In this document: piece by piece, positions 24,066 through 60,805 of the stretch
How the letters are laid out: the number at the start of each line of letters is the position of its first letter
Position numbering within the stretch: position 1 is the first letter of the stretch
Source of the DNA: Massalongia carnosa
Taxonomy: Eukaryota
NCBI GenBank assembly: GCA_965645245.1
Contig: OZ287072.1
Location: forward strand, 1,674,001-1,738,000
Reading direction: 5' to 3'
Length of the DNA: 64,000 bases
Program-made: the position numbers and the translations under genes
The notes under the pieces: model-generated
Told to the model about the DNA's origin: nothing
The model's database searches: none
Seen by the model: only the letters and a program-made list of their open reading frames with translations

Positions 24066-25335
24066 GTGAGCACGTTTTTTTGTGTTGATTGCTTCTTTTC
24101 TTGCTTTTTGTATGATCTTCAAAAAGTCCACCTTGTCAATCGAACAAATGTTGAATCGAGTGACGGCCTCCAGTTGTTTTTTATACTCCCGAGACAGGGG
24201 ACCGAAAACGCTCACGTCTAGAGGTTGTAGTAAATATGTAGTATGAGGAGGTAGACATAGAGGAATTATTTTCTTTTCATTGCAAAACTTGATAAATTCA
24301 GTAGAAATATGAGAAGCATGACCGTCTACCATCAGAAGTCGATAATCACCATGTAAATATTTTGCAGTAGCAGGTTCAAAACATCTTTTCAACCAATCGA
24401 CACCTAGTTCATTATCTGTCCATCCGTTTTCACTGGTGGCAATTTCGCTGTGAATATCTTCCAGAACATCAAACCAGGCCTTTAGTTTGTTTACCCCTTT
24501 GAAAATGACGAAGAGGGGTAGACTGCGTCCAGTAGCAGAAATGGCCTCGATTAATGACACCCATTCTCGATTACCTGATTGTGCTGAAAAGGCCTGCTTT
24601 TCGTGCTTAGGTATTACCACTTTAGCACTAGCGGCTACCCCCATCATGAGCCCTTTTTCATCTATATTGTAGATGTCTTCATCAAGAATTCCGTGTTTTT
24701 GTTTGACGGAAAGAAACAGCTCGAACCAATGTTTAAAAATCTCTTCGTTCTCCGCAAATAATCGTTCCTGATTGTCATGAAATGCCTCCGACCTCACCAC
24801 GTGCCTCTATCACGTGCCTTGATCTGATGACTACTCACGGACGTCGTGCCATGCCTTCGGGACCCTCATATCATTCTTCGAATTCGCCGATTACTGATCA
24901 TTAATCAGCCTCGCATTGATGATTTATTCCCGTCTTTCGACTATTATCATGTCTAATAGCTTCGCATTGATGTTTGACATCTCCCGTCTCCTCGCTGACC
25001 CCATCGTGCTTATTGCCGCTATAATGCCCCTCATTCATCATCGCACTGACTAGACATCATTCGCCGCCACCCTAGAAAGATGAATATGGGAGGACAAAGA
25101 TATAAGAAAGAAGTCGAATCATGGAAGTTCTGATTCTTTGTCGAACGTCTTGAATAGCCAACCTAGCCTAGCCTAGATTCATAGCTATAGACTCAATCAA
25201 TAAGCTTGACCATCAACCCACCTTGCCTTTGCCCTTGCCCTCGACCTGATTTCGTGACATTACGTTCGACCAACATTCAAAAGTGCCTTCCATAGCATTT
25301 TCCCTCATCTCCCTTTATCTCATTCCCCCTCAATC

Positions 25336-32936: not shown

Positions 32937-35900
32937 TACGCCGCGCAACGGGTCGGGTTGAGTCGAGTTTTGACTAGTCGAACCCGACCCGCTACTAGGT
33001 TGGGGAACCTGTAGGGCTCAGCCCGCTGGGTTGGGGAACTGTTCCCGGGTTAACCCGTTTGACCCGTTCGACCCGGTCGATTTTTTATGTCATTTTTAAA
33101 CATGTTTTTAGACATTTTAAACATATTTGAAAATTCTGAAAATTCTGAAAATTCTGAAAATTCTGAAAATTCTGAAAATTCTGAAAATTAGTCATCAAGA
33201 AATGATGATTAGTAAGCAGAAAATATATCTGTTTAAACGTTATATTTTCGTCGAATTTTCATATTTTATTTGCAGAAAAAACTGACCGGGTTGAACGGTT
33301 TAACCCAGAAACCCGCATAAATAACCCGAACCCGTCGGGTCGGGTTCGAGGGAGTCTGTCATGAAACGGCTTCGAACCAAAAGGATCTCGGCCTTATCCC
33401 TAGTTGCCCCCTCTATCCTGTCCCTACCTACCGTACCGCAGGTTCATTGGAACTACCGCTGGTTCATTGGACCTACCGCGGGTTCATTGGACCTACCGCA
33501 GGTTCATTAGACCTATCACAGCTTCATTGGTCAGTGCGCGCTGTTCTAACCTTTCTCGATGCGGTTAGATCGAGTACGGCTCCGCATCCGATCATCGAAA
33601 CCATAATTACCCGGTCCCCATTAGGTGTCTTCGTATTAACTTAGGAAAATGAGATGAATAGGAGACATCGAAGATTAAGGAAACAAAGGGGTAAGGAGGT
33701 GAGGAACAGATATAAAAGAAGGGGTCGAGTCTCGAAAGTTCTGGCTCCTTGTCCGACGTCTTGAATAGTCAATCTAGCCTAGCTGTAGCTATAGACTCAG
33801 TCAATTAGAAAGCTTGACCATCCAATCCAGTCCCTTGACATTACGTCGGACCTATCCCTTAAAAAGTGCCTTCCATAGCACTTTTCTCTATCCATTCCTT
33901 TTTCAACCCAGCCATGTCTTCTCAGGAAGAAAACCCCCCTCATCAGGACGAGCGTGTGAGATTTGTTTAGGAACGTCTTCAATCCAACCCTCAACAGTTC
34001 TTGAACGAAATGGAAGCCATGTCGATCGAATTAGCTCAGCTTCGCGCCGCTGTCAAAACCCCATCCCCGTCCGCCTCAGATCCCCCCGTCTCGACTCTCA
34101 ACCCAGCTCTCGCCCCATCCTTGGATCCCCAGATAGCTGCCCTGATGAAGCTACTCCTAGCCAGGAACCCCGAACCACGTTCAAAAAAGATCCCAGATAT
34201 TCCGGAATACGACGGGGACGAAGCTCGACTGGACGCCTGGGAACAAAGCCTCATTCAGCGAATGCATATAAACCATGATCGCTATCCCTCCGACAAATCC
34301 AAAATCGCGTATGCAGAAAATCGACTAATCATCGGAAAAAAGGCTCACAACCTCATGAACTCCTATCGAGTTTACGGCCTTTGCACACTGACCTCCTTCT
34401 CCGACTGGCAATTCGCTCTTCGTCGTGCCTGTGGCAACCACTACGAACAAGAAGATGCTTGAAAATATCTCCGAGAAACGTTGAAACAGGGCAGTATGAG
34501 CTTTGAGGAATACTATAACCTGTTCTCCCAAAAGAAGGATCGCTCGAGAATGGAGGACGCCTCTCTGATTGACGCTACGAAGACAAACGTCAACTATTCA
34601 ACTCAGTCAGCGGCCCTCATGTATCGGGTACCGGGTACCAATCGACAACCGATTACCATCGATGAACACGTCACCATGTGGTTGGAGACGGACCGCGGCC
34701 TGCGTCAAATTCGTCACCTCGCCCCTAAATCTTCCAACACTACCGCGGGACTCAATGCTTCGGCCGCCATCACCTCAACGTCCCGAAAGGGACAATCAAC
34801 CAATCAGCCCTCGGCAGTCAGAGCTGCTTCTGTCCCCTCCTCTTCCACCCCCCCAGCACCTCTGCCCGTCGGCGACCCGATGGATCTTAGCTCTGCTATG
34901 GCCGCAGTCAAGGGCCATTCACTAAAAACCGAGGGAGTTAGGAAGATTTGCGAAGACTGGAAGCTCTGTTTTTATTGCAAATACCAGCATCCCGGGAAGT
35001 CAGCCATTGACTGTCCCAATAAAAAATCAACTCACCTTCGAACCATAGATCTCATCCCCGAGGGTCCTAATAACAATCAGGAAAAAGCCTAGTCCCTGCG
35101 CTTAGTCGCGTGCAGGGACCTCCCGTTTTCATCTCTTCTTGTTTGATGGCCGACTCATTTTCCCCTTTTCTAAGGTCTAATACTCGTTTTTCCGTAGCGT
35201 CCGCTTTGGAGCTGTTCGAATCAGATAAAACGTTCAAAGACAGCCACATGGTAGTTGCCTGTACTTTACGTTTATCTAGATTCAGAATTAAAACATTTAA
35301 CCTTGTCGATTGTGGTGCATCTGGCTACTCATTTATTGATGAAAACTTTGCGCAAACTCATCAAATCCCTCTTCATCCCCTCAAATATCCTCGACGCCTT
35401 GAAGGATTTGACGGCCAGGCAGCCCTATCCGAAAACATCACCAAGGTGGCTGAAATTATCATGGACCTAGAAGGGCATGTAGAAAGATTATTTCTATTTG
35501 TCACCGGATTAAAACATTACCCAATTGTCCTGGGTCACCCATGGCTTCGACGGCACATTGCTGTAGCTGATTTTGGAAACAATACCCTCACCTTTGCCTC
35601 TCCTTTCTGCCTCACTCATTGTTGCCCCTATCCTGTCAAGATTTATGCCATTGAGGAAGAATTCCTCACCTCAGTCGAAAGTCAGAAAGTCTTGGAGGCT
35701 GAGGATGTCAACTCAGTCAAGAAAGTTTTCGAAGACATCACGTCCATGCAAATTATCAGTACGTCGAAAACTTTCCTATAACAAGAGGAAAAAAATACCT
35801 CTTCAACTAAACAAATCGAGCCCAAAATCGAAACCCCCCTCGAGCCCCTATCAAATGATAAACCGAGCCGTATCGAGAAGACAATTCAGCAAGGACTCAC

Positions 35901-38900
35901 TCCGAAAATTCGATATAATAGTCCTTCTTCACTTCGTACATCTACTCAAAGACGTGCCGAACAGAAAGCACGCAAAAACATCCCTAGCCTGCAGCTAAAC
36001 GTCTGCGAAATCGAAGCCGCCTCCTTCAACCGACTAAGCCGGAAGAAAAATCACGATATCTTTGTTCCTTCGATGAAAGAAATCGATCGCTTCTTAGGAA
36101 TGGAAGCCTCACCTAGCCCAGTTCCCAGGCTAGCCCTCAATCAAAGTCCCAGCCTAGTTATCAATTCTAGTCCCAGCCCAAGTTATCAACCATTGTCCCC
36201 CCAGTCGAGTCTCAGTGAAAAGGAAATCCATCTAGCCCTATTCAAAATGAATAAAGCCCTAACCTTGCACGCAACCGTTACCCAAGAGGAATTAGACGAA
36301 TATCGGGAAAGAAAAAACGTCGATCCAGCTCCTTTTCTGCCCAAGCAATATCACGACTTCCTAGATGTTTTTTCAAAGAAAAACTCCGACATCCTACCCG
36401 GTCACCGCCCGTACGATCATACAATCAAGTTAAAAGAAGGCACTCAGGCCCCTAGTCAGGCTCTTTATGGAATGAGTCGCAATGAAATCGAGGAGCTTCG
36501 TCGTTATCTAGATGAGAATTTAGCTAAAGGATTTATTAGAGCTAGTCGCTCTCACGCTGCCTCACCAGTAATGTTCGTCAAAAAGCCTGGAGGAGGACTT
36601 CGCTTTTGTGTTGACTATCGAGGCCTAAATGCCATTACGATAAAGAATCGCTATCCGCTACCTCTGATCGCCGAGACACTAAATCGATTGTCTAGAGCCA
36701 AGATTTTCACCAAGCTAGACATCATCGCCGCCTTCAACAGGCTTCGAATAGAAGAAGGAGATGAAGAACTCACCGCATTTCGCACTCGTTTTGGCCTGTT
36801 CGAGTCTCTGGTCCTGCCATTCGGTCTGTGCAACGGACCCGCCTCTTTTCAACATTTTATTAATGACACCCTTCGCGAGTATCTTGACGACTTCTCCACG
36901 GCCTATTTAGATGACATTCTCATCTACAGCAATAATGAGCTAGAACACGAGACACACGTCAAGAAAATACTCTCCAGACTTCGAGACGCTGGTCTGCAGG
37001 CCGATATCACCAAATGCAAATTTCACGTGACCAAAATTGCATACCTAGGGCTGATTGTGACCACAAAGGGAATAAAGATGGACCCAGCCAAAGTGGAAAC
37101 CGTCACGAACTGGCCAATTCCCGTCACTGTGAAAGACGTGCAAAGCTTTTTGGGATTTGCTAACTTTTATAGACGATTCGTGTATGGATTTAGCAACATA
37201 GCCGGGCCCCTAACCAATCTGACTAAAAAGGAAACGGAATTTCGATAGACTGAAAAATGTCAAACCGCTTTCGAAATCTTGAAAAAAGCCTTCACCTCCG
37301 ACGTTATATTGAGACATTTCGATCCGGATCGTCCAATAGTCGTAGAAACCGACGCCTCCGACTATGTGTCGGGTGGCATTCTTTCTCAGTATGATGATAT
37401 GGGAGTGCTTTATCCTGTCGCCTACTTTTCCAGAAAACACAATCCGGCTGAATGCAACTATGAGATATATGACAAAGAATTAATGGCAATTGTTCGATGT
37501 TTCGAAGAATGGAGATCAGAATTGGAAGGATCTGCATTTCCTAATAACGTCATATCTGATCATAAAAACCTCGAATACTTTGCCTCGACTAAACAACTCA
37601 GTCGTCGTCAGGCCAGGTGGAGTGAATTTCTTTCTCGTTTTGAATTCAAGATAGTCTACCGACTAGGAAAAGCGGGAGGAAAACCGGACGCTTTGACTCG
37701 ACGATCAGGAGATCTTCCTAAAGAAGGGGATGATACGGACGATCGAAGGAAATATCAGCATCAAACTATTCTAAAAACCGAAAACCTAGACGAGGAAATC
37801 GCAGAAAGCTATATTTCTTCCATTCTTCTAGCCCCAGCCTTTCTAAATAACGAAGAACCTCACCCCGAAGAACTTCAGCTAGACGAGGGCCCAATCAATC
37901 CAGATGAGGATATTACTACTCAGCTTCTTTGGGAACAAGCCCTCGTACGAGATCAATTCGCACCCAGAATTCTAGAAGCTCTTCGCAATAACGAAAGACA
38001 TCATAATCAAAGTCAGCTAGCAGAATGCGAAGACAGAGAAGGTGTCCTATATTTTCGGAATAAGAAATATGTGCCTCGATCAGACCGCCTACGACTTCGT
38101 ACTATTCAACTTGCCCACGATAGCGTCGCCGGAGGACATCCAGGCCGTTCCAAATGTCACGAATTAGTAAATCGAACATATTGGTGGCCTAGTATGCATC
38201 AGTCCATCAAAAGATTTATTCGGAATTGCCACACCTGCAAAAGATCAAAACTATCTCGTCAGCGTTATCAAAGCTGGCTGCGTCCGCTACCCCCTCCAGA
38301 ACGTAGATGGCGTGATATCTCCATGGATTATATAGGACCACTGACTCCCAGCACCTTTATGGGAATCACCTATCACTATATCTTAGTGTTTATAGACCGT
38401 CTTTCCAAAATGCGACACTTTGTCCCCACAGCAACCATGGAAGTTGAAGAAGCGGCTAATTATTTCTATCAGAATGTCTGGAAATTGCATGGCCTTCCCG
38501 ATGTCCTGGTCTCCGACCGTGGCTCCCAGTTTACCTCCGACTTCTGGGAACTGATGTGCAAAAGGTTGAAAATCGATGCTAAACTTTCCACTGGTTATCA
38601 TACTGAGACTGATAGACAAACCGAAAGAGCTAATGCCACTATAGAGCATTATCTTAGGGCTTATGTCAACTCCATGCAAGATGACTGGGTACAATGGCTT
38701 CCCGGCGCCGAATTCGCTAGCAATAACACCGACTCTTCTAGTATTCTGGCCTCCCCCTTCCTAGCCAACTTGGGACAACATCCTCGTGTGGGATTTGAAC
38801 AGGAGGAACCGTTACCTCAAGACTTGACCGCTCAGGGAAGGGCAAACCTGATTGCAGCCAATCGGTTTGTGGACAAAATACAGGACATCGATACTCATCT

Positions 38901-40150
38901 CCGAGACAAAATGCTAATGGTACAAGAATCTTATGAATCAACCGCAAATGCTAATCGACGTCCCTGCCCCCGCTATTTTGTAGGAGATATGGTATGGCTA
39001 AGCACCAGAAAAATCCAGACCGCCCGCCCAACAGTTAAATTAGACGATCGAAACATCGGTCCCTATCGGGGCAGCAAGGTTATTTCCAACCCACTGATTG
39101 TTCAAATCGAACTTCCCGATACCGTCAAAATTCATCCCGATTTTCACGTCAATCTATTGCAACACGACGCGAATGACCCGCTTCCCGGACAAATACCGGA
39201 GCCTCAAAACCCCGATATTGCTGAAGACGGCCAGCGAGAATGGTATGTAAATAGCATTCTGAATTCCAAACTCGATCGACGTTTCCAACCCCCACTTCTG
39301 AAGTATCTTGTCGGCTGGGAAGGATACGCCTCCACCTGGGAACCATTCAACTATATCACCAACTGTCAGCAAGCCCTAGACAAGTATCATCAAGCTTACC
39401 CCAACGCGGCTGGCCCTCATCTCACCCCGTGCCAAATTCCTCGTTGTCGGTGTCGTGATTAAAATTGCATCGCAGGAGCTCTGCCTTTGAGGGGGGAGCT
39501 ACTGTCATGAAACGGCTTCGAACCAAAAGGATCTCGGCCTTATCCCTAGTTGCCCCCTCTATCCTGTCCCTACCTACCGTACCGCAGGTTCATTGGAGCT
39601 ACCGCGGGTTTATTGGACCTAACGCAGGTTCATTGGACCTAACGCAGGTTCATTGGACCTAACGCAGGTTCATTGGAACTACCGCTGGTTCATTGGACCT
39701 ACCGCGGGTTTATTGGACCTACCGCAGGTTCATTAGACCTACCACAGCTTCATTGGTCAGTGCGCGCTGTTCCAACCTTTCTCGATGCGGTTAGATCGAG
39801 TACGGCTCCGTATCCGATCTTCGAAACCATAATTACCCGGCCCCCATTAGGTTTCTTCGTATTAACTTAGGAAAAGGAGATAAATAGGAGACATCGAAGA
39901 TCAAGGAAACAAAGGGGTAAGGAGGTGAGGAACAGATATAAAAGAAGGGGTCGAGTCTCCAAAGTTCTTGCTCCTTGTCCGACGTCTTAGATAGTCAATC
40001 TAGCCTAGCTGTAGTTATAGACTCAGTCAATTAGAAAGCTTGACCATCCAATCCAGTCCCTTAACAGAGTCCAACCCGACCCGAAAACCCGACTCAAACA
40101 TGACGGGATAGGTAACTAGACAGGTTAAACCTAACCCGTTGCGCGGCGAA
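32937..40150. mobile_element. hAT-like MITE, copy 2 (inverted relative to copy 1), split by Gypsy-2
   Basis: TIR TACGCCGCGCAACGGG / CCCGTTGCGCGGCGAA, 8-bp TSD AGCTTTAT, AACCCG subterminal repeats, 9-bp TTCTGAAAA array at about 33130-33188. Confidence 0.88.
33357..40066 (+). mobile_element. Chromovirus-type Ty3/Gypsy element 2, decayed; LTRs 33357-33840 and 39503-40066
   Basis: TSD GAGTC; gag about 33914-35092 (stop at 34460), pol to 39462 (frameshift near 35770, TAG at 37246); clear homolog of element 1 with a different LTR U3. Confidence 0.97.
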
Positions 40151-40185: not shown

Positions 40186-40356
40186 TGTGACGAAGCAAGA
40201 TAGTGAATAGATTTCTACCATTGCGCCACCTGTCCTTCCCGACCAAAAGGCATAATACTTAGTCCGCAGACCAAGCTCTATTCTACTATAACTAGGACTC
40301 CTGCTATGTTCGCTGTAGGTCCTGCCGTCCGCACCACGCTTGGTCGAACCGTTACA
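40186..40356 (-). mobile_element. Solo 171-bp LTR of the TRIM family
   Basis: Reverse complement of 47635-47805; flanks CTATA/CTATG. Confidence 0.88.
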
Positions 40357-40400: not shown

Positions 40401-40466
40401 TGTAACGGTTCGACCATGCGTGGTACGGACGGCAGGACCTACAGCGAATATAGCAAGAGTCCCAGT
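40401..40466 (+). mobile_element. Partial TRIM-family LTR cut by a LINE 5' end
   Basis: TGTAACGGTTCGACC...CCCAGT matches the first 66 nt of the 47635 LTR. Confidence 0.8.
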
Positions 40467-42706
40467 CAGCACCTATCGAAAAATAAGTACCGCAACTTTG
40501 ATACTCTATAACTTTAATAGTCAATTGAGCCTCTATTTCTCAGTCATTTGAGCTCCTCCAGAGCAAAAACGCTCTCAGATTGGTTGTAGGAGAGCTCTAG
40601 CAAAGCTCGAGCAGAGTTTTTCTACAAGTCGTACGCGACCGACGTGATAAAGCGCGCTTAAGAAGTTGAAAAAACAACAAATACCAATAACATCACCAAA
40701 AATCGCTCTTATTTCTTGTTTTCTTCTGTTCTGTTGTCGCAGAACTTTCAATTATTACTATAAGAATTATCTACAAAAAATATCTACTCTCGCGGTACTG
40801 TACAACAACTGTCGCGACGTTAAAGTCTTCGGAAGTTCATTCCTCATTTAAGGTTACGGGAACTTCCGCAAGCACAAATTGTCACAGCATATTTCACGTA
40901 TAATTTTTGCACATTCCATTTTTGGCTTTATCGATCTTCGTTGAACGGCCGGTCAACAGATCACTGAAAAGAAGGGGAAAAACGTCTGGAATAGGAGGAT
41001 TATACCAAAGGTCCTGTTTCAGATTAATCAGAATAGGAAGTCTCGTATTGTATTACATTGCAACTTTATTGAAAAAAAGCAAAGAAAACTTTCATTATTT
41101 TCACCTATTGTAGTGTCTGGTAAAGGGTTAAATCAGACTTACTGCCTTAGCGAGGAAAGGTCTATTTTAACCCGATTAGGATTTATTTGACGAGTGATAG
41201 TCAAATAAATAGGGATAGGAAAGAAAGAGTAATTTGACCAGTAAACAGGTGTAAATTCTAGTACGTCCGGGGAACGTCAGAATAAATTATTTGGTGGCGA
41301 TAAAAGGGATATTGCAACGGCAAAAAACACTATGCTCAATCGAAGGTTTAACCCGATGGGTCATAGACCAAATCAATTGATACCCTCAACTCCACCCCCA
41401 GGCCCCCTTCCGAAACATCTATGGGTCCCCCCGACTACGCCCCCGGGCCACCCCCCAACAGACTCCCCCGCGCCATCTTCGGTAGCGATAATTGGGAGCA
41501 CCCCCCTAACCGTAGAGTCCACGGAGGCCATGGACCAACGGCGAGGATTCTCGTCCGGACCGTCTACACCCATCCCAAAAGCGAAATCTTTTGTCGCGCC
41601 ATCTGGTGAATTCAGTACTAATCGGCCCATGCCATAATTGAATTCTGATATTCGACTTAGTCCACCAATTAAACGCAACAAAAGACGAACATTTGAAGAA
41701 CATTCGATTGAAAGTTAAGAAGTCATCAATCGAACAAAATAGATTCAACTATTGTATACGGCAAAAAATGCATTATTGGAGTCATTCGTTCTAGATTAAA
41801 ACCCTGATACGGCTATTGTCATTGATCACGTCAATTCTTTACTGGCAAAGAAATCGATCAAGCCTATACCAACGTTAGAAATTATTGATTGGAAATTGAA
41901 TAGGGTGCTAGAACAAACTAGCAAAATTCCAGAAAAAAAGAGACAATAGGTGCGACCTATACAGACAAGTTCGAATGGAAATTCGAATTTGAATAAAAAC
42001 GTCAACCCAACAATTCGGAGCGGAACCGCCGGGGTCCCGGGGCCGCAGGTCAATGACACAGCTAGAACATGGAGCCAAATGCTTGGAAAAGCGACTGTCA
42101 ATTCCGAAAATTGGACTACCGTTCCTCGATCCAAAAAAACAAACAACAACAACATCAACAATTCGAATGCGAACAAATTCGATAATACTGACGATTTCAA
42201 GGCGATCAAATCTCGACGGTTGATAATTATACCGAAAGCTCAAATCGGCGATATCAACTAACTGTTACTTCGAAACCAAATCATTTCGCTTTTTAAAGAC
42301 GCGAAGTTGACTATCGTTGTTAACACGGTCGAAAAGTCCAAAACGGGTCAAAAATTCGTTCTGACTACTAGCCCTGAAAACACTGCTGAAGATTTATTGA
42401 CCAATAAATCAATATGGGAGCATTTATTTGACCCACGAATAGTTCGAAAGGACGAATCGTGGTTTAAAGTCGTCGCAAACGGCGTAAATATTGCAATATT
42501 TGATGAAAACATGCAATATTTGCAAGACGAAATTCAAAAGTTCAATTCGAACATGCAATTATGCGATGTTCCCAGATGGCTAGCACGTGATCGTCATAAT
42601 CAGATCAAATCATCCGTTGTTTTGACCTTCAACGATCGAAATATGGCCTTGAACGCGTTAAAAGGAGTCAATATCGCGGTTCAACATTATGACACGGAAA
42701 TATTTA

Positions 42707-45047: not shown

Positions 45048-46101
45048 ACACCTATCGAAACACAAGTACCGTAACTTTTGATACTCTATAACTTTAACAG
45101 TCAATTGAGCCTCTATTTCTCAGTCATTTGAGCTCCTCCAGAGCAAAAACGCTCCCAGATTGAGTGTAGGAGAGCTCTAGCAAAGCTCCAGCAGAGTTTT
45201 TCTGCTGGTCGCACGCGACCGACGTGATAAAGCGCGCTCTAGAAGTTGGAAATAACAACAAATACCGACAACATCAGCAAAATTCGCTCTTTTTTCTTGT
45301 TTTCTTCTGTTCTGTTGTCGCATGACCTTTAATTATTACTATAAGAATTATCTACAAAAAATATCTACTCTCGCGGTACTGTACAACAACTGTCGCGACG
45401 TCAAAGTCTTCTAAAGTTCATTCCTCATTTAAGGTTACGGGAACTTCCGCAAGCACAAATTTTCACAGCATATTTCACGTATAATTTTTGCACATTCCAT
45501 TTTCGGCTTTATCGATCTTCGTTGAACGGCCGGTCAACAGATCACTGAAAAGAAGGGGAAAAACGTCGGGAATAGGATTATAACAAAGGTCCTGTTTCAG
45601 ATTAATCAGAATAGGAAGTCTCGTATTGTCTTACATTGCAATAAAATCTATCTTTATTGAAAAAAAGTATAAAAAAAAACTTTTATTATTTTCACATATT
45701 GTAGTGTCTGGTAAAGGGTTAAAATCAGACTTACTGCCTTAGCGAGGAACGGTCTATTTTAACCCGATTAGTATTTATTTGACGAGTGATAGTCAAATAA
45801 ATAGGGATAGGAAAGAAAGAGTCATTTGACCTGTAAACAGGTGTAAATTCTATTCTGACTAGTACGTCCGGGGAAAGTCAGAATAAATTATTTGGTGGCG
45901 ATAAAAGGGATATTGCAAAGGCAAAAACATTATGCTCAATCGAAGGTTTAACCCGATAGGTCATAGACCAAATCGATTGATACCAACAACTCCTCCCCCA
46001 GGCCCCCCTCCACAACATCTATGTGTCCCCCCGAGTACACCCCCGGGCCCCCCCCGAATCGACTCCCCAGCGCCATCTTCGGTAGCGATAATTGGGAGCA
46101 C
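45048..46101 (+). mobile_element. Tad-like LINE copy 2: leader and ORF1 start
   Basis: Colinear with 40469-41501; ORF1 ATG 45932; breaks at an LTR-like sequence. Confidence 0.88.
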
Positions 46102-46344: not shown

Positions 46345-46809
46345 CTTACCGGCCTGCTCATGTTGCTAGCACAGAAAAACTCCAGAACATGTAATCATGT
46401 TCTGCAAACTTATTGACAATAGAGAACAGATGTTTCGCGCCGCCGGAATCAGTGACTTTCAGCTGCTGCCCAAATCATCAAAAACTCTGAAGATACTAAC
46501 TGCTTGGCTAATGAAAACAGGCTTATTGAATCAATTCTCACTAGCATCAACATTATTGTAAAATCTACAATAGTTGAACCTTTCTTTCTATCTTTCTTCT
46601 CTTTTCACAAGGCATTACAGTTCCTACATGTCTTTTGCAATGCGTCTCCCGCCCGACGTGGACCCGTAGTCACATCGGACGGGTATCAAGGGACATGGTT
46701 TTTACACCTGTGAAAGGTTTTCCATGTAACATAACTTAGATAGCTTGGCCTGCATGGGCCGGCCTACGGCCGGTGTTATATCGGAGTATGAATATATCAT
46801 CATTATCAT
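46345..46809 (+). mobile_element. 5'-truncated 3' end of a second LINE family
   Basis: ACSCC*HRKTPEHVIMFC..TAWLMKTGLLNQFSLA stop resembles the Tad-clade ORF2 CCHC C-terminus; 3' UTR ends in ATC-like repeats. Confidence 0.7.
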
Positions 46810-47235
46810 AGAAACATATCCTAATATAGTTTAGTGTCATAACCTTAGGTTTAATACACTTAATGAATAAATACAAATATATCCTAAAATAGTTTAGTGT
46901 CATAAACTTAGGTTGAATACACTTAATTAAGAAAATTAATAAAAAAAACTAGCTTATGGAACAACAAATATGACGAATGGAACGAAGACGAAAAACAAAC
47001 AAATAAACGAAATCCTAGTCAGCTTTTTCGCGTTCTGCACTGAGTTTCGGACATAGATTATAAAACTGATGAATTCAAACAATTAAATAACTTTATAAAA
47101 GCATAGAAGTCGTCATGTAAAATCGAATTTCAAATCGAAAAGTCATTTTTTAAATTTTTAATTTATTAATTAAGTGTGTTCAACCTAAGGTTATTACACT
47201 AAACTATTTTAGGATATGTTTCCATAATATAAATG
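46810..47235. mobile_element. Cluster of short LINE fragments: two tandem + strand 3' tails, an ORF2 piece and a - strand 3' tail
   Basis: Match the 3' UTR/tail at 60806-60890 and ORF2 sequence at about 62120-62310. Confidence 0.75.
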
Positions 47236-47805
47236 TATAACGGTCCGACCAAACGTGGTGCGGACGGCAGGACCTACAGCGAACATAGTAGGAATCCCAG
47301 TTATAGTAGAATAGAGCTTGGTCTGCGGACTAAGTATTGTGCCTTTTGGTCGGGAAGGACAGGTGGCGCAATGGTAGAAATCTATTCACTATATCGCTTC
47401 GTCACAGAATACTTAGTCATCAATCGGTGTACTAGTCGTGAGTTCGATTCTGACCTGAGTTCCTCGCTTTTTCGCCTTGCTTCGACGGACTGAAGCTAGG
47501 ACGAAACGGGAAAGCGTTGGATAAAAACTCTCTAAGTCGGATCGGCGAGGGCCGTACGCTAAGAAGAGCCCATTCTTCGGGGTAAACTATTACTGGAAGC
47601 GGCTAGGGGCTAGCCGCAGCTATACGGGCGGTAGTGTAACGGTCCGACCAAGCGTGGTGCGGACGGCAGGACCTACAGCTAACATAGCAGGAGTCCCAGT
47701 TATAGTAGAATAGAGCTTGGTCTGCGGACTAAGTATTGTGTCTTTTGGTCGGGAAGGACAGGTGGCGCAATAGTAGAAATCTATTCACTATCTCGCTTCG
47801 TCACA
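47236..47805 (+). mobile_element. TRIM-like miniature LTR retroelement: two 171-bp LTRs and a 228-bp non-coding interior
   Basis: Direct repeats 47236-47406 and 47635-47805 (TG/TA..CA), purine-rich GGGCGGTAG before the 3' LTR; flanks AAATG/GAATA are an imperfect TSD. Confidence 0.85.
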
Positions 47806-47841
47806 GAATAAATTAAACCTTCATAACCCATCTATGTTAGA

Positions 47842-50800
47842 GTCAGCACCTATCGAAACACAAGTACCGCAACTTTTGATACTCTATAACTTTAACAGTC
47901 AATTGAGACTCTATTTCTCAGTCATTTGAGCTCCTCCAGAGCAAAAACGCTCTCAGAGTGAGTGCAGGAGAGCTCTAGCAAAGCTCCAGCAGAGTTTTTC
48001 TGCTGGTCGCACGCGACCGACGTGATAAAGCGCGCTCTAGAAGTTGAAAAAACAACAAATACCAACAACATCACCAAAAATCTCTCTTTTTTCTTGTTTT
48101 CATCTGTTCTGTTGTCGCAGAACTTTCAATTATTACTATAAGAATTATCTACAAAAAAAATATCTACTCTCGCGGTACTGTACAACAACTGTCGCGACGT
48201 CAAAGTCTTCTGAAGTTCATTCCTCATTTAAGGTTACGGGAACTTCCGCAAGCACAAATCTTCACAGCATATTTCACGTATAATTGCACATTCTATTTTT
48301 GGCTTTATCGCTCTTCGTTGAACGGCCGGTCAACAGATCACTGAAAAAAATGGGAAAAACGTCTGGAATAGGATTATACCAAAGGTCCTGTTTCAGATTA
48401 ATCAGAATAGGAAGTCTCGTATTGTCTTACATTGCAATAAAATCTATCTTTATTGAAAAAAAAGCAAGAAAAAACATTTATTGTTTTCACCTATTGTAGT
48501 GTCTGGTAGAGGGTTAAATCAGACTTACTGCCTTAGCGAGGAACGGTCTATTTTAACCCGATTAGGATTTATTTGACGCGTTATAGTCAAATAAATATGG
48601 ATAGGAAAGAAAGAGTTACTTGACCAGTAAACAGGTGTAAATTCTATTCTGACTAGTACGTCCGGGGAACGTCAGAATAAATTATTTGGTGGAGATAAAA
48701 GGGATATTGCAAAGGCAAAAAACACTATGCTTAATTGAAGGTTTAACCTGATGGGTCATAGACCAAATCGATTGATACCCTCAACTCCACCCCCAGGCCC
48801 CCCTCCGAAAAATCTATGGGTCCCCCCGACTACGCCCCCGGGCCCCCCCCCCAATCGACTTCCCCGCGCTATCTTCGGTAGCAATAATTGGGAGCACCCC
48901 CCTAACCGTAGAGTCCACGGAGGCCATGGACCAAACGCCAGGATTTTCGTCCGGACCGTCCACACCCACCCCAAAAGCGAAATCTTATGTCGCGCCATCT
49001 GGTGAATCCAGTACTAATCTGCCCATGCCATCATTGAATTCTGATATTCGACTGAGTCTACCAATTATACGCAACAAAAAAGGAACATTGACGAAAATTC
49101 GATTGAAAGTCAAGAAGTCATCAATCGATCAAAATCGATTCAACTATTGAATACGGCAAAAAATGCATTATTGGAGTCATTCGTTCTAGATCAAAACCCC
49201 GAAACGGCTATTGTCATTGATCGCGTCAATTCTCTGCTGGCAAAGAAATCGATCAATCCTAAAGCAACGTTAGAAATGATTGATTGAAAATTGAATAAGG
49301 TTCTAGAACAAACTAGCAAAATTCCAGAAGCAAATAGACAATCGGAGCGACCTATACAGACAAGTTCAAATGGAAATTCAAATGGAAATTCGAATTTGAA
49401 TAAAATCGTCAACCCAACAATTCGGAGCAGAACCGCCGGGGTCCCGAGGCCGCCGCATGTCAATGAAACAACTAGAACATGGAGCCAAATGCTCGGAAAA
49501 GCGAGTATCAATTCCGAAAATTGGACTACCGTTCCTCGATCCAAAAAAAACAAACAAAAACAACATCAACAATTCGAATGCGAACAAATTCGATAATACT
49601 GAAGATTTCAAGGCGATCGAATCTCGACGGTTGATAATCATACCGAAAGCTCAAATTGGCGATATCGACTCACTGTTGCTTCTAAACCAAATCAATTCGC
49701 TTTTTAAAGACGCGAAGTTGACTATCGTTGTTAACACGGTCGAAAAGTCCAAAACGGGTCAAAAAATACTTCTAGCTACTAGTCCTGAAAACAGTGCTGA
49801 AGATTTGTTGGACAATAAATCAATATAGGAGCATTTATTTGACCCACGAATAGTTCGAAAGGACGAATCGTGGTTCGAAGTCGTCGCACACGATGTAAAT
49901 ATTGCAATATTTGATGAAAACATTGCAATATTTGATGAAAACATGCAATATTTGCAAGACGAAATTCAAAAGTTCAATTCGAATATGCAATTATGCGATG
50001 TTCCCAGATGGCTAGCAAGTGATCATCATAACAAGATCAAATCATCCGTTGTCTTAACATTCAACGATCAAAATATGGTCTTGAACACGTTAAAAGGTGT
50101 CAATATCGCGGGCCAACATTGTGACACGGAAATATTTACCTCCGTTCGTCCAAACACAAAATGCATTAATTGTCATAAATTTGGACACAAGCATTATCAA
50201 TGCAAAAGTCAAGCGAAATGCAGCATATGTGCGCAAAATCATGAAACACGCAATCATGAATGCAGAACATGCAAATGAAAAATTGCATGTGCACACGTTG
50301 TCGTGAAATGCACGAATTGCAACAAGAATCATCAATCCAATGACGAAAATTGTGAAATGGTTATATCGTTAAATATTCGAAAATCGACTGACGAACTAGC
50401 CGCTGTGTAATGGCAGGACAGCATTCGTTGACAAACATCGAAAATATACAAAATGTTAAATTTATTCAACATAATTGTGCAAAGTCAACGAATGCAATGA
50501 TTTCGTGTTTGGAATATGATTTATCGAATCAAATTGATATTGTTTTGTTTCAGGAACTATAGACACGAGATGAAAAAACTATATCACATCCGTCATTTAC
50601 ATGTATTATGCCAAAAATAGCGACTTATCGCTCGAGAGTAGCTATATTTGTCACAAAATGCAATCCCAAACTGCAATGCACGCCTAGAACTGATCTTATT
50701 GACGATTCCGATATGCAAATTATGGAAATTACAATTGATGAAGTTCGAAAAGTGCAGATATTCAATATATATAACGAATAAAGTCAAAGTGATCGAGAAA

Positions 50801-52351: not shown

Positions 52352-54508
52352 GCAAGTACCCTATGATTTGTTATTCTATAACTCCTATAGTCAATTTATC
52401 CCATCTTTCTCAGTCATTTGAGCTTCTCTAGACCAAAAACGCACTCAAATTGAGTGTGGGAGAGCTTCCGCAAAGCTCTTGCAGAGTTTTCAACTGGTAG
52501 TATGCGACCGACGCCAAAATAGCCAACAAAGTACCGAGACACCGCACTGAAGCAGCAACAGTACCCTCGATTTTGATATTCTGAAACTTTCGGATTAGAT
52601 TCTACCCATCTTTCTCATTCATTTGAGCCCCTCTTTAGCAAAAACGCACCAAAATAGGGTACGGTAGAGCTCTTCCAAGGCTCCTGCTGAGTTTTTCTGC
52701 TGGTTGCATCCATCCAACTCACTCCAAAAACGCCCCCTAAAATTTAAAAAATACAAAAAACATCTACAATTCTTTCAAAAATCGCTCAATTTTCGATATC
52801 TCTTCGATTTTATTGTCGAATAGACCTCAGTTATTATCACCGAAATCATCAAGAAATAACACTCACTGTCGCGTTACTTTACACCTGTTGTCGTCCCGTC
52901 ATAATTTTTTAAGTTTATTTCATATTTAAGGTTTCTGGTACCTGCGCAAGCAGTATATTTCTTGCATTTTCAGTGCATATTTCGTGCATAAGTTTATTTT
53001 GGGTTTTCTTGTTCATCATCGAACGGCCAGACTAACAATCTACTTTCGGACATCTATTTCTCAACATTGGACGGCCCGCTGAAAGGAAGGGGAAAAAGAC
53101 TAGAATAGGGTTACACCAAAGGCCCTGTTTCAGGCTAATCAGAATAGGAGTTCCCTATTTTCTATATCGTACTTGATTTTTATTTTTGATTAAAAAACAC
53201 TAAAATTATCCTATTTGATCAAACTTTTCATTATTTTCAACTACCGTAGTGTCTGGTAAAGGGTTAAATCAGACTTACTGCCTAAGCGAGGAACGGTCTA
53301 CTTTAACCCGATAAGAATTTATATGACTTGTTATTGTCAATTAAATAGGGGTAGGAAAGAAAGAGTTATTTTGACCAATAAATCGGTATAATATCTATTC
53401 TGCCTAGTACGTCTGGGGAACGTCAGAATAAACTATTTGGTGGTGATAAAAGGGATATAGAAAAGGCATGTTTAACCAGGTAATCAACCCGGTAGCACAC
53501 TCGGCACTCCCTAGAACTATGTCAAGGGCTGGGTTGGGAATTGAACTAATGTTCCTATGAATTGGATTGGATGATCAAGATGTCCTTATTAATGAGGCTA
53601 TAGCTAGGAGGTGGTTTGCTATACAAGACGTCGGCCGAGGAGTCAACTATCTACAGGATATGTCCTCTTTTTATACCTGAGCCAGCCCCTTCTCATGTTT
53701 TACCTTCACCCTAGATGAGAGATTTTGGTGATAGTGGCGGCGATAAGGTAGAGCGATAAGTGGGCCCGTAGATGTGATCGTTCTAGCGATAAGAGGGTAT
53801 AGTGGAGTGAGGAGATTGGTGGAGTAGAGTAAGGGGTTTATTCAGACTCATACCGAGGATGAATCTGAATAGGCTTTCAGGTAGCTTTTACCTCGATCGC
53901 CGCTTGACGGTTCGGTAATCATTAGGTTTTAACTCAAACTTTATTTCATGACAAACTAGGCGATTTTTGGCGAGACCACCCCCCCAAGGCCCCCTACCTA
54001 GAAATTTATCGGCCCGCCCAAGTACCCCCCCAGGTCCCCCCCAAAAAGACTCCCCCGCGCTATCTTCAGTAGCAATGATAGAAAGCTCACCCCTATCCGA
54101 CGAGTTTATAGAAGCTATGGACCAGTCAGGGAAATTTTCGTCCGCACCCTCCACAACGACCCCTAAAGCGAAAGTCTTCATTGCTTCATCTAGTGATTTT
54201 ACTACCAATTTACCTATGCTATCATTACATTCGAATATTAGACTAAGCCCGCCAATAAAACGCAATAAAGACGATCATTTGACGAGTATTCGATTGAAAG
54301 TCAAGAAGTCAACAATCGAACGAAATTAATTCAACTACTAAATACGGCTAAAAACGCACTATTAGAGTCATTCGTACTAGATCAAAATCCCGAAACGGCT
54401 ATTGTCATCGATAATATAAATTCTCTACTGACAAAGAAATCAATCAAGCCTAAAGCAACGCTGGAAATTATTGATTGGAATTTGAATAGGGTGCTGGAAC
54501 AAACTAGC
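52352..54508 (+). mobile_element. Divergent subfamily LINE copy 4: leader with duplicated 5' unit and ORF1 from 53468
   Basis: Homologous leader; ORF1 MFNQVINPVAHSALPRT-RRFLARPPPQGP is in frame once the solo LTR is removed; cut by Gypsy-3. Confidence 0.85.
53520..53953 (-). mobile_element. Solo LTR related to Gypsy-3
   Basis: TGTCAAGG...CATGACA with TSD AACTA; R-U5 part similar to 54509-54665. Confidence 0.9.
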
Positions 54509-57500
54509 TGTCAAGGACTGGGCAGGGGATTGAACTAATATTCCTAGGAATTGGATTGGGTGATCAAGATATCTTTATTAATAAGGCTATAGCTAGTTGA
54601 TAGATTGCTATACAAGACGTCGGATAAGGAGTCAACTATCTAATTAACTTGTCCTTCCTTTTATATTTGTCTCGAACCCCTTTGCCTGAAGATTCGATCA
54701 GTGTTTATCTCCCCCTATTAGGAGACGTACGGCACGAAGATTTGACGAGGTTTTTGACGATAAAAGGTGGAGATGAGGTTCTCCTGTCGTTGATAAGCTT
54801 TGATGGTGATGGTACAGCTTTGACCTGAAGCCGTTGAGAGGGTCTAAACTCGATTTAGTTAATGAGATTCTGACTAAGCTGAATAGAGGAACGGGAGCTT
54901 AGTCAGATTCATCTGCGGGATTGATTCTGGATCGGGTTGGTTCGATTTCACGACAGTAGCTCCCTTTTCAAGAGCTGAGCTCCTGCGAAGCAGTTTTATT
55001 CATGACAGCGACATCGAGGAATGGAACAGGGGGTGAGATGTGGGCCGGATGCACCAGAATAGGCTTCGTAGAATTCGTCCAGAGCTTGTTGACAGTTGGT
55101 TAGTAGGTGAAATGGCTCCCAGGTAGGGGTATGTCCTTCCCAGTTGACGAAATACTTGAGAAGCGGAGGTTGATAACGTCTGTCCAGTTTCGAGTTCAGA
55201 ATGCTGTTGACATACCATTCTCGCTGTCCATCTTCGGCTATTATTGGGTCGCGAAGCTCGGGAATTTGTCCTGGGAGGGGGTCGTCTGCGTCGTGTTGTA
55301 GCAGATTTACATGAAAGACCGGATGAATTTTAACCGTGTCGGGGAGTTCCAGTTGAACAACAAGAGGGTTGGCGAACACCTTACAGACTCGGTAAGGACC
55401 GACATTTCGATCGTACAGTTTGGCTGCCGGACGGGCTGTCTGGATATTTCGGGTGTTTAGCCATACTATGTCTCCTACAAGATAACGAGGACAGGGACGG
55501 CGGTTCTCATTGGAGGAAGATTCGTATGAGGCCTGCGCGATCAACATCTCTTCTCGTAGGTGAGTGTCTACGTCTCGCATCTTGTCTACGAATCGATTGG
55601 CGGCGATCAGGTTAGCGATTCCCTGGGCGGTCAGGTCTTGCGGAAGGGGCTCTTTGGGTTCGAATCCTACCCTGGGGTGTTGTCCATAATTAGCCAGGAA
55701 GGGAGAGGCGAGAATGCTAGAGGAGTCGGTGTTATTGCTGGAGAATTCGGCACCGGGTAAGTACTGGGCCCAGTCATCTTGCACGTAATTGACGTATGCC
55801 CGAAAATAATACTCCATGGTTGCGTGAGCCCTCTCGGTTTGGCCATCTGTCTCGGGATTAAAACGGGTTGATAGCCTAGCATCAATTCTAAGCCGTTTAC
55901 ATATGATGTCCCAGAAATCGGAGGTGAATTGGGTGCCTGGATCCGAAATCAAGGCGTCTGGGAGACCGTGTAATTTCCATACATTTTGGTAGAAGGAGTT
56001 AACAGCCTCTTCTACCTCCATGGAGGTGGTGGGGACGAAATGTCGCATCTTAGAAAGGCGATCGATGAAGACGAGGATATAACGATAGGTTATACCCATA
56101 AAGGTGCTCGGAGGCAGTAGACCTACGTAGTCTATGGAAACGTCACGCCATCGACGTTCGGGTGGGGACATAGGGCGTAGCCATCCTTGGTATTGTTGGC
56201 GGGATAGTTTGGATCGTCTACAGGTGTGACAGTTACGAATGAATCGTTTGACGGTTTGATGCATACTGGGCCACCAGTATGATCGATTCATTAGTTCGTA
56301 GCATTTGGAACGACCGGGATGGCCACCTGCTACGCTGTCGTGTGCCTGTTGAATGAGACGGAGACGGAGCCGATCCGAATTGGGTACGTATCGACGGTTT
56401 CGAAAATAAAGAATCCCTTCTTTATCTTCACATTCGGCTAGCTGAATGCCGTTATGATATCTGATGTTATTGCGAAGCATGTCTAGAACTTTCAGAGAGA
56501 ATTGATCCTGTTCCAGAGCTTGTTCCTATAACAGCTGAGTTGGGACGTCGGTCGGGTCTTGGCCAGGATTGGTTTGGTCGGCAGGCTGATCCAGCTGTGG
56601 TTCAGGTTCAATGAACTCGTGATCATGTTCAACGGACTCGGGATCCTGTTCGATGAACGCGGGGGCTAGGATAATCGTGGATAAGAAACTTTTCGCCACT
56701 TCGTCGTCCAGGTTATGAGTTTTCAGGATGGTTTGATGCTGATATTTATGTCTTTCATCAGTTTCATTCCCCTCTTTAGGGAGGTCTCCTGAGCGACGAG
56801 TCAGTGCATCTGGTTTTCCACCAGCTTTTCCGGGTCGATAGACTATTTTAAAGTCAAATCGGGATAAGAATTCGGACCAGCGAGCTTGACGACAACTGAG
56901 TTGTTTGGTTGAAGCGAAGTATTCCAAATTCTTATGATCTGAGATAACGCTGATGGGGTGAGCAGAACCTTCTAATTCCGGTCTCCATTCTTCGAAGCAT
57001 CGGACGATGGCCATGAGTTCCTTGTCATAGATCTCATAATTGCATTCGGCCATGTTGTGTTTCTTGGAGAAGTATGCGATGTGGCGAAGCACGTTCTCGT
57101 TGTCATACTGAGAAAGGATACCACCAGAGACGTAGTCCGAAGTATCGGTTTCCACGATGATAGGACGATCGGGATCGAAATGTATCAGTATTAGTTCCGA
57201 GGTGAAAGCTTTTTTTAGAGTTTCGAACGCCTGTTGACATTTGTCAGTCTATTGAAAGCTGACCTCCTTTTTGGTTAGATTCGTCAGTCGGCCGGCTATC
57301 TTACTAAAGCCGTATACGAATCGTCTATAGAAGTTAGCAAATCCCAGAAAGCTTTGTACATCTTTCATATTGATCAGTATTGGCCAATGAGTTACTGTTT
57401 CGATTTTAGCGGGGTCTATTTTGATTCCCTCGGTGGTTACGATTAGTCCGAGATAGGCAACTTCTGTGACATGAAATTTGCATTTGGTGATGTCTACTTG

Positions 57501-60500
57501 CAGCCCGGCTTCTCTCAGCTTGATGAGGATACGTTTGACGTGGATTTCATGCTCGCCTTCAATTTCGCTGTAGATGAAAATGTCATCTAGATAGGCCGTG
57601 CAAAAGTCGTCGAGATACTCTCGAAGAGTATCATTGATGAAGTGTTAAAAGGAGGCGGGGCCGTTACAGAGGCCGAATGGTAGGACCAGGGATTCGAAGA
57701 GGCCAAAACGGGTTCTGAATGCGGTGAGTTCTTCATCTCCTTCCTTGATGCGGAGCCGATTGAACGCTGAAATAATGTCCAGCTGGTGAATATCTTAGCC
57801 CGACTCAGGCGATTCAGGGTTTCGGTGATCAGGGGAAGCGGATACCGATTCTTAATCGTGATTGCATTGAGGCCTCGATAGTCGATACAGAAGCGAAGTC
57901 CTCCTCCTGGCTTCTTTACGAACATGACTGGGGAGGCAGCGGGGGATTTACTAGCTCGGATGAAGCCTTTCGACAGGTTCTCATCAAGGTAGCGTCGGAG
58001 TTCTTCGATTTCGGTTCGACTCATGCCATAAAGAGCTTGATTCGGGATTGGAGAGCCTTCTTTTAGCTTTATGGCATGGTCGTAGGGTCGGTGTTCGGGC
58101 AGGACGTCCGACTCTTTTTTGGAGAAGATATCCAGAAAGTCGTGATACTGTTTGGGTAGAAGGGGGGCTGGGTCGACGTTCTTTCGCTCACGATAAGCGT
58201 TCAGTTCTTCGGCGGTCACTGATGATTGCAGTATCAAGGGTTGAGGTTCGGGTTCGGTCACTGAACATAACTGTGTCAGAGCCTGGTTCATACGGAACAG
58301 GGCTAAGTGATATTTCTTTTCACTAGGGCTGGACCGGGGGTTGGGTTGGTAGGTTGGTTTCGAGTGTGCCCAGTCAGTCTCTTGACGAAGGCGAGATTCG
58401 GGTTTGGGTTCAGGCTTAGGTTCAGGTTGAGTCAGGCCGAGAAAGTGATCGATTTCTTTCAAGGAAAGAGCAAACATCTCGTGACTCATTTTTCGTCCGA
58501 GATAGTTGAAGTTGAGGGCGCCGATTTCACAGACGTCCAAAACAGGAGGATTGCGATTCTGCTGGGTAGCATGTCGCTGAGTAGAGGTGCGATACGAAGA
58601 GGGACTTCGATATCGGATTTTCGGTGAGTCGCCCTGTTCAATCGCTTTTTCGATACGACTGATATCCTGATTTTCGAGAGAAGTTGTCTTACTATCGCGC
58701 GGCGTGGTTTTATCGGACAGGACAGGTTTTTCGGACAGGATTTGACTATTGGACGAGTAGTTTTCCGATTCCCATACTTCCTGACTTTCCGCAGGAGATA
58801 GGAATTTCTCGCCCGTGTAGGCCTTCACCTTGACTGGATGAGGGCTACAATGAGCCAGGCAGAAGGAGAAAGATAGGAAGAGAGAGTTGGACTCGAAATC
58901 AGCGAGAGGTTGATGTCTTCGCAACCATGGGTGTCCCAGGACGATGGGGTAGGTTTTCAGTCCTGTTACGAAAAGGAATAATATTTCTACATATCCGTTT
59001 AAGTCCATGATTACCTCGGCCACATGAGTGATATTTCCAGTCAGAGCCAGCTGACCGTCAAAGCCTTCAAGGCGTCGGGCGTATTTGAGGGGATGAAGGG
59101 GGATTTGGTGAGTTTGCGCAAACTTCTTGTCAATAGATGCATAGCCAGATGCACTACAATCAATCAGATTGAGAGCTTGAATTCGAGATCTACCTAAACG
59201 TAAGATACATGATACCACTAGGGGGTTATCTCGAAACGCTTCTTCGGTTTCAAACAGCTCCAAAGCGGAGGCTGCGGAAAAACGAGTGTTTGATTGAAGG
59301 GGGGAGAAAACGAGTTGGCTAACAGACAAGAAGAAATTAAAATAGGGCTCTGCGCGCGACGATGCGCAGAGTCTAGACGTTTCCCGAGTCGTCAGTCTCG
59401 GGAGTGAGGGTCGAGACGACTTCCATGTTGCGAAGGCGTTTGGTAGGCTTATTTGGACAGTCGGAGGCCGACCCGAGGTGTTGCAATTTGCAATAGAAGC
59501 ACAGGTTCCAATTCTCGCAGATCTTCCTTACTCCCTCGGTTTTCAACGACTGACCTTTGACAGCCGCCATGGCCTGACTTAGGTCTATGAGGTCTCCAGC
59601 TGGGGTGAAGGCGGGGGTTGGGATCGATGGGGTGACCGTGCCCGTGACGACAGTGCGGGGGAAAGGGGCAGCAGGAAGGTTGGTGCCGTTTCTTCGATTG
59701 GCGGGAGCTGATGTGGCCGGAGTCGTGGCCTTGGGTGCCAGATGACGGATCTGACGGATTTTCCAGTCCGTGCTTAACCACATTGCGACGAGGTCGTCGA
59801 AGGTGATTGGCTCCAGAGTGGTGCCGGGGACTCGGTAGTAGACGGCCGCGGTTTGAACGGAGTAGTTGATGTTTGCCTTCATGGCATCAATCAACGAAGC
59901 GTCTTCCATTCTGGATCGGTCTTTTTTTTGAGAGAAGAGAGTGTTGTACTCTTCGAAACTCAGAGAGCCCCACTTGAGGGTTTCTCGAAGGTACTTACGG
60001 GCATCCTCTTGTTCGAAGGGGTTGCCGCAGGCTAGGCGAAGAGCAGAACGCCATTCGAAGAAGGTGGTGAGTCTACAAATGCCATCCACTCGATACGCAT
60101 TCATAAGGTTGTGAGCTCGTTTCCCGATGGTGAGCCGATTCACCGCGTATGCAATCTTGGAGGCATCGGTGGAGTATCGATCATAATTAACGTGCATCCG
60201 TTGAATCAGGCTCTGTTCCCAGGAGTCTAACTTGGCTTCATCTCCATCGTACTCGGAGATGTCGGGAAGTTTTTCGGAACGAAGATCGGTTTTGGACTCG
60301 GAATTCCGGGTCAAAAGGAGCTGCAGGAGGGCAGCTATCTGAGGGTCCATTGCCGGAACGGACGAGGGAGACGAGGTTGATGCTGGAGTGGGTGTAGGGG
60401 GGTCGGGAGCTGGGGCAGCCTGCAACCCGGCCACCTCGTCTTGAAGTCGTCGTATTTCCGCGACGAATGCTTCAGGATTGGTTTGGAACTGGTTTTGAAA

Positions 60501-60805
60501 CAACTTCACGTTCTCGTCGATGAGAGGATTTTGGGGGACGGTCATCTCTTCTGAAAACGAACACATGATGGTGGAATATGAGGGGGGACAGGGGCTAGTG
60601 CTATGAAAGGCATCTTTCGATGTAGGTCCGACGTAATGTCAAGGACTGGGCAGGGGATTGAACTAATGTTCCTAGGAATTGGATTGGGTGATCAAGATAT
60701 CTTTATTAACAAGGCTATAGCTAGGTGATGGATTGCTATACAAGACGTCGGACAAGGAGTCAACTATCTAATTAACTTGTCCTTCCCTTTATATTTTTCT
60801 CGAAC
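54509..60805 (-). mobile_element. Chromovirus-type Ty3/Gypsy element 3, decayed; 3' LTR 54509-54955, 5' LTR from 60637 cut by a LINE at 60806
   Basis: gag 60566-59373, pol about 59385-54996 with a frameshift near 57780 and stops; homologous to elements 1 and 2. Confidence 0.95.

Follow-up and report, generated by a model that had tools for sequence, protein, structure and literature searches.

Self-priming of reverse transcription has been shown for Tf1 and is predicted for its coding relatives. The mechanism has been described for Tf1 (PMC7175516; 10.1101/2022.12.06.519325), and the Tf1/sushi self-priming group is given as Tf1, Tf2, Tj1, Tosmo1-3, Maggy, Skippy, Cft-1, Boty, Grasshopper and Afut1 (PMC6934838). 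TRIMs (Witte et al. [quoted passage not shown] The Helenus elements, placed with Cassandra and Ajax in TRIMp3 (Kojima 2024, PMC10886601), carry both boxes of a tRNA-type promoter inside each LTR and are primed by tRNAs or tRNA halves. Their fungal families are described in that report as Copia-dependent and as occurring in Basidiomycota only; the word 'Ascomycota' does not occur in its supplement, and complementarity between LTR and PBS is reported there as not found (PMC10886601).

The element analysed here lies in a window of 64,000 nucleotides, the whole stretch of DNA under study, and had been read in an initial annotation as a non-coding TRIM with a self-priming complementarity instead of a tRNA PBS; its layout is given in Table 1. 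The host is a filamentous ascomycete; for its eIF2A exon the closest named relatives, at 60-67% identity, are from lichen-forming fungi. The PBS at 47408-47418 is indeed the exact reverse complement of 47328-47338, a pairing that cannot be extended by Watson-Crick pairs, and the interior is non-coding as proposed, its longest ATG-started frame being 40 amino acids. The further insertions of the LTR seen at 40186 and 40401 are real as well: the first, in minus orientation, is a solo LTR and the second a truncated LTR. From the first base of the TATA-like TTATAGTA to 47328 the distance is 27 nt. In the interior, the hairpin at 47599-47617 and three short inverted pairs are present as described, but taken whole the interior shows no better folding than shuffled sequences (z -1.34), and locally two hairpins stand out to a modest degree (z -2.1 and -2.4). 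The window copy is old, with 95.3% identity between its LTRs and a first base pair TA, not TG. Its flanks, AAATG and GAATA, form no exact TSD; eight copies of the flanking repeat elsewhere have the empty site, which reads AAATA, and each window flank is one change away from it.

The insertion target is an AT-rich, MITE-like repeat with inverted arms (46804-47232 and 60806-60895), of which there are many copies elsewhere. Another repeated element adjoins both TRIM sites (40464-42706, 45049-46101, 47841-50138 and 52353-54508); one portion is similar to L201, a LINE-like coding stretch that fits a loose A/B-box pattern as well, at about 45 places and probably by chance.

Table 1. Features of the window copy and of its relatives in the window
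Feature	Position	Strand	Basis
Left target-site copy AAATG, degenerate	47231..47235	+	flank comparison, empty sites elsewhere
5' LTR, 171 bp	47236..47406	+	ends set by TSDs in 24/30 copies
TATA-like TTATAGTA in U3	47301..47308	+	sequence; putative function
Predicted self-primer (RNA nt 1-11; LTR 93-103)	47328..47338	+	PBS complement in 30/30 copies; fold-back junctions
Possible partner of PBS-adjacent pretzel duplex	47339..47351	+	duplex possible, p 0.28
tRNA-type A box TGGCGCAATGG in U5	47364..47374	+	13.2 bits; 14/14 against tRNA-Arg(CCU) gene
Spacer G between 5' LTR and PBS	47407	+	
PBS AATACTTAGTC, one base past LTR; complements LTR, no tRNA match	47408..47418	+	
tRNA-type B box GAGTTCGATTC in interior	47440..47450	+	16/16 against T arm of tRNA-Met gene
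Interior hairpin with T5 run (47468-47472)	47462..47516	+	local z -2.1
PPT-proximal hairpin GCG...CGC	47599..47617	+	local z -2.4; chromovirus families alike
Polypurine-tract-like stretch ending GGTAG; not a pure purine run	47622..47634	+	
3' LTR, 95.3% identical to 5' LTR	47635..47805	+	
Right target-site copy GAATA, degenerate	47806..47810	+	flank comparison
Solo LTR of the same TRIM family, flanks CTATA/CTATG	40186..40356	-	
LTR of the same TRIM family, truncated at position 66 (positions 1-66)	40401..40466	+	

The element is a TRIM family with many independent insertions. Copies of about 570 bp with 5-bp TSDs, which the initial annotation named as a check, were found in numbers: three genome searches combined gave at least 71 distinct 5' junctions over 20 contigs, and all 40 candidates scored in a DNA search (40 of 463) were near-full-length copies. 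Thirty retrieved copies measure 567-571 bp, with LTRs of 169-171 bp; an exact 5-bp TSD is present in 24 of them and one with a single mismatch in another three, and 12 have identical LTRs. The family has the dimensions of a TRIM, being under 1 kb with two direct terminal repeats within 100-250 bp and a non-coding interior, and its purine-rich tract ending in GGTAG matches that of four chromovirus families. Among 23 LTR-PBS places beyond the first list, 22 proved to be TRIM copies, two of them split by nested 5.7-5.9-kb elements, and one a chance junction; 20 of 26 new PPT-junction places were read and comprised 16 TRIM copies and four unrelated sequences. No longer element with the LTR of the TRIM was present at these 23 LTR-PBS and 20 of 26 PPT-junction places or in 30 Gypsy regions. 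The lack of an exact TSD at the window copy might be cited for a full-length element that underwent a single internal deletion, but this is refuted by the uniform length and distinct TSDs of the copies and by their presence at 71 or more places, together with the absence of a longer element sharing the LTR from the places read, and retains practically no probability. A metagenome scan for the TRIM pattern gave 0 matches, and a search of Rfam with an intact copy returned one chance match only (E 4.8). In two TRIM copies, two different LTR retrotransposons (L037 and L050) have inserted in the same 5-mer, GCTTC, at TRIM interior positions 245-249, within the interior hairpin, and at L166 (G000:C9:712500-714900) TRIM copies and LTRs are nested within each other.

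Like Tf1, the TRIM very probably primes its own reverse transcription. The 11-nt complement between PBS and LTR is present at offset 1 in all 30 copies, and when the LTR was shuffled with its dinucleotides kept, a complement of this length at offset 0-3 arose in only 3 of 20,000 trials. Primer and PBS are invariant in the 30 copies found by BLAST (lowest 5% of windows) and lie within the lowest 3-5% of windows for variability when these and a set of 52 copies are considered, the latter set being biased by copies found through the PBS pattern and a low CpG content possibly contributing to the invariance. Four contig sets of DNA or unknown type (from two studies) that hold the family list no variants at primer or PBS and no compensatory changes, so that any covariation lies between families only. 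The flanking duplexes of a pretzel structure can form, at a p of 0.28, and are likewise not significant in eight of nine autonomous families; the putative partner at 47339-47351 includes GCCTTTTGG, a 9-mer common to a second TRIM family described below, and a T4 run (47344-47347).

The absence of a tRNA-complementary PBS, the one feature of a classical TRIM that the family lacks, held against 50 distinct nuclear and organellar tRNAs, a set from which introns called by ARAGORN were removed and which is not exhaustive, as several nuclear isoacceptors are missing. The best 11-nt window, with 8 identities, does not coincide with a 3' end or, in nuclear tRNAs, with an anticodon half, and the PBS has neither a TGG start nor an anticodon-loop register. 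The gaps in the set matter because the fungal Helenus TRIMs are described as using anticodon halves (PMC10886601). A Helenus-like, Copia-dependent TRIM primed by a tRNA or a tRNA half, in which the 11-nt complement would be a relic or due to chance and fold-back copies would stem from inverted repeats at the DNA level, could still appeal to the missing isoacceptors and to the presence of Copia elements in the genome, and has to be weighed against the fold-back insertions.

A pattern for fold-back junctions matched at 10 places genome-wide and at none in the control. Seven of these are plain LTRs and three (L091, L092 and L093) are true junctions, in which a minus-strand copy of U5-R is joined to the PBS. 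In L092 (G000:C7:2359172-2360038), 99.8-100% identical to an intact copy, two units are joined head to head; this dimer has U5 at both ends, the exact TSD CAAAA and unrelated flanks, and runs from the 3' U5 end of the minus-strand copy to LTR position 93 and then through PBS, interior and 3' LTR. L091 and L093 begin with the reversed U5-R only; the former has lost its right end and the latter is without a TSD. The reversed arm ends at LTR position 105 (window 47340) in both L092 and L093, the spacer G coming from the PBS side, and in L091 it extends to position 104 or 93. Overall, the copied R of the fold-back copies ends at 47328-47340, at the predicted primer or 1-2 nt past it. In a further copy, L042, which has the flanks GTGGA and GCGGA, the PBS is preceded by reversed U5 over 23 nt; it shares with the three others a U5 at the left end that is joined at the primer/PBS.

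On a self-primed RNA the minus-strand copy of U5-R would end at or beside a PBS-like sequence and could restart there. Tf1 RNA is described as being cut after nucleotide 11 (PMC7175516), and by analogy the fold-back ends would mark the sites where such an RNA is cut or begins. Fold-back at short inverted repeats in DNA (cf. PMC4689423) could, acting on the 11-bp inverted repeat, yield the junction of L091, as the tRNA-primed reading would have it, but it would not be expected to halt precisely where integrase joins the two ends and to leave a TSD: the symmetry of L092 ends exactly at its two U5 ends within an exact TSD, and its junction base derives from the PBS side. No earlier report of such fold-back insertions was found in the literature. 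They amount to evidence, encoded in the genome itself, for the site at which an RNA begins or is cut, and can be used in any fungus for which RNA data are lacking.

Moreover, the genome contains a second TRIM family (L163 and L167-L196) of 591 bp with 186-bp LTRs, for example at G000:C19:678434-679024. The 40 scored of 78 candidates include five near-full copies and many solo LTRs, and exact TSDs are present in L168 and L169. Here, too, a spacer G is followed by a PBS that complements the LTR, in this case over 17 nt, whereas none of 5,000 shuffles gave more than 10 nt; in L167 and L168 the pairing was read by eye. The two families share short words only, among them GCCTTTTGG after the primer, and the different 17-nt duplex represents cross-family covariation for self-priming. 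The 3' junction of this family matches that of the chromovirus L052. No third such family was present in 1.06 Mb of retrieved DNA. With a different self-complement in a second family, a PBS that agrees with the 50 tRNAs at 8 of 11 positions at best and a PPT junction that fits chromoviruses, priming by a tRNA or tRNA half is already weakened and in our judgement very improbable. Self-priming in place of a tRNA PBS, as first proposed, is supported by the complement in 30 of 30 copies, by the fold-back copies and by the second family.

In all likelihood the TRIM borrows Gag, reverse transcriptase/RNase H and integrase from a chromovirus of the Tf1/sushi group. Its RNA, which would presumably be packaged by the helper, is predicted to start at about 47328, most likely transcribed by Pol II from the TATA box. 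RNA nucleotides 1-11 would anneal to the PBS, the RNase H of the helper would cut after nucleotide 11, and the minus strand would begin one base past the LTR end. The plus strand would begin at the PPT ending in GGTAG, to be followed by normal LTR replication and by insertion through the helper integrase, which would make the 5-bp TSDs.

The helper class named in the initial annotation fits what the genome contains. Our Gypsy sample comprised 30 regions, chosen among the 150 highest-ranking of 811 and of 746 candidates, plus the nested and window copies. Both LTRs could be resolved in 18 elements, 16 of which carry, at offset 1-3, an 8-11-nt complement of their own LTR that differs in sequence from element to element, so that helpers able to process such an RNA are present. 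In several of them the LTRs are identical and pol frames are open over long distances; three of four elements tested match a chromodomain, L053 and L059 combining it with long open pol frames. The 3' junction of the TRIM aligns best with those of L053, L059, L063 and L079 (0-3 of 300 shuffles), all of which have 11-nt primers, and no better than by chance with those of 12 others. In the same four families a GCG...CGC hairpin, recognised by eye, immediately precedes the PPT and agrees with 47599-47617 in place and stem ends, which marks the latter as a PPT-proximal stem and not as the private packaging signal that the interior had been supposed to provide. A reverse transcriptase tree of 13 rows, from which rows without the cutting motif were left out, groups L053, L063 and L059 and leaves L079 unplaced. 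No autonomous helper with the LTR sequence of the TRIM was found in the 30 Gypsy regions from the 811 and 746 candidates, and the likeliest helpers are families with 11-nt self-primers and PPTs ending in GGTAG or GATAG.

The window itself holds a chromovirus at 24773-31453 (plus strand) with identical 487-bp LTRs, the TSD CTGAT and a 9-nt self-complementary PBS, whose pol frame is broken by a stop ahead of the SH3/chromo part; older relatives of it lie at about 33360-40066 (plus strand) and 54510-60805 (minus strand). In the Gypsy families L065 and L146 the self-complement of the PBS is only 5-6 nt long.

But which polymerase would make the RNA? An intact copy carries tRNA-type A and B boxes that together score 31.5 bits, a value reached by 0 of 300 shuffles and lying within the range of tRNA genes (13.5-35.3, self-scored with matrices from 28 nuclear tRNA genes), whereas the 13 autonomous leaders of the genome score at most 15.2; the B box alone accounts for 18.4 bits. 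The boxes were first spotted by eye, so this statistical test is post hoc. They are identical over 14/14 positions to tRNA-Arg(CCU) for the A box and 16/16 to tRNA-Met for the B box, and by eye both halves resemble a tRNA-Trp gene. As the A box lies in U5 and the B box 33 nt beyond the LTR end, the pair is split across the LTR edge and complete only at the 5' LTR. Genome-wide, the A/B pattern had 60 matches (control 0), 53 in the TRIM family, four in tRNA genes and three elsewhere, one of the latter being the second TRIM, in which the A box again lies in U5 and the B box past the PBS. The split layout is thereby shown twice, though the second family was found via that layout. From their sequence, the boxes are probably a genuine TFIIIC site of tRNA origin and would most likely bind TFIIIC or yield a short Pol III RNA; a T5 run (47468-47472) is a possible terminator.

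It follows less readily that these boxes drive the transposition intermediate, which we consider rather unlikely. In tRNA genes the A box lies about 18-20 nt from the start, and a T5 run stops most Pol III transcripts. A Pol III-driven element of the TRIMp3 kind, in which TFIIIC bound to the split boxes would determine where transcription begins (at 47328, assisted by the TATA box, or else near 47345), would agree with the box scores, with the discovery of a second TRIM of the same split layout and with the presence, soon after the primer in both families, of GCCTTTTGG, which recalls the short R described for Cassandra (PMC10886601). However, with a start near 47345 the RNA would be without its primer, which would have to come in trans from another transcript, and the arms of the fold-back copies extend at least to 47339-47340, upstream of such a start. 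The distance of 36 nt between the predicted start and the A box is atypical, most Pol III RNAs would terminate at the T5 run (47468-47472), and the boxes are not conserved above background, varying like their surroundings in the 52 copies and in the 30 found by BLAST (young copies that afford low power). We regard this reading as unlikely, and a role of the boxes as an insulator or in a short side transcript seems likelier than one as the source of genomic RNA. More broadly, one may conceive of a TRIM class whose tRNA promoter is assembled only across the junction of 5' LTR and PBS, the product of Pol III being the genomic RNA or else a short primer-donor RNA (about 145 nt, 47328-47472, R-U5-PBS); such elements would be independent of tRNA, could dispense with a host primer as well as with a Pol II enhancer, and would have their primer cut recorded in the fold-back insertions. 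This proposal is doubtful, and we favour a self-primed RNA made by Pol II.

ARAGORN found no tRNA in the 64,000-nt window, and relaxed runs on the element gave implausible folds only. Two further A/B patterns matched tRNA genes, a LINE-like coding stretch present in multiple copies and some single-copy places; the 11 of these matches that were retrieved had no LTR pair. Matches to the A/B pattern also lie at G000:C8:1264774-1264842 and C15:1330409-1330495, and L161 (G000:C14:1115769-1115838), a single-copy tRNA-like stretch with an A+B score of 28.2 bits and no ARAGORN call, is suggested by its sequence to be a pseudogene or another Pol III unit. The nuclear tRNA genes Trp-CCA (L157, G000:C8:422371 on), Arg-UCU (L160, C5:~455000, minus strand) and Arg-CCU (L156, C3:1614270 on) contain inserts of 49-55 nt at non-canonical positions. 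These begin with GTAAGT, GTAAGT and GTTTGT, respectively, and end with AG, like spliceosomal introns; their removal leaves tRNAs of 72-74 nt, but many other cuts pass ARAGORN too, so that this is not proven. No report of such inserts in tRNA genes was found in the literature.

Neither a self-priming TRIM nor its combination with split tRNA boxes was found in the literature, although Repbase may include such consensus entries. A non-coding element of 571 bp cuts the cis requirements of self-priming to a minimal, testable RNA, and PBS annotators that seek tRNA matches will miss TRIMs of this type. If the split A/B boxes work, they would extend TRIMp3 to ascomycetes and Gypsy helpers and would scatter TFIIIC sites through repeat-rich chromatin.

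Taken together, the family resembles known TRIMs in being shorter than 1 kb, in having a short non-coding interior with PBS and PPT and 5-bp TSDs, and in its many copies, but its PBS complements its own LTR and not a tRNA. With Helenus and other TRIMp3 elements it shares A and B boxes of tRNA origin with a T run behind them, LTRs for which no autonomous partner was found at the places read and, as regards the fungal Helenus families, a 5-bp TSD. It differs from them in that the B box lies in the interior, so that the tRNA-like sequence is not contained in the LTR, and in that the PBS is self-complementary, with no tRNA primer found among the 50 tRNAs; different from fungal Helenus, moreover, its likely helper is a Gypsy element and its host a pezizomycotinan ascomycete. 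The closest likeness is to the Tf1/sushi group, in which, as here, a PBS beside the 5' LTR complements an LTR 11-mer downstream of a TATA-like box, the ends are TG...CA, the TSD is 5 bp and no tRNA primer is used. Unlike the members of that group, the TRIM is only 571 bp long and without Gag-Pol, its flanking pretzel duplexes are not significant, and it has tRNA-type A and B boxes that are absent from the 13 autonomous leaders of its genome; it would thus work like a member of the Tf1/sushi group, but a dependent one.
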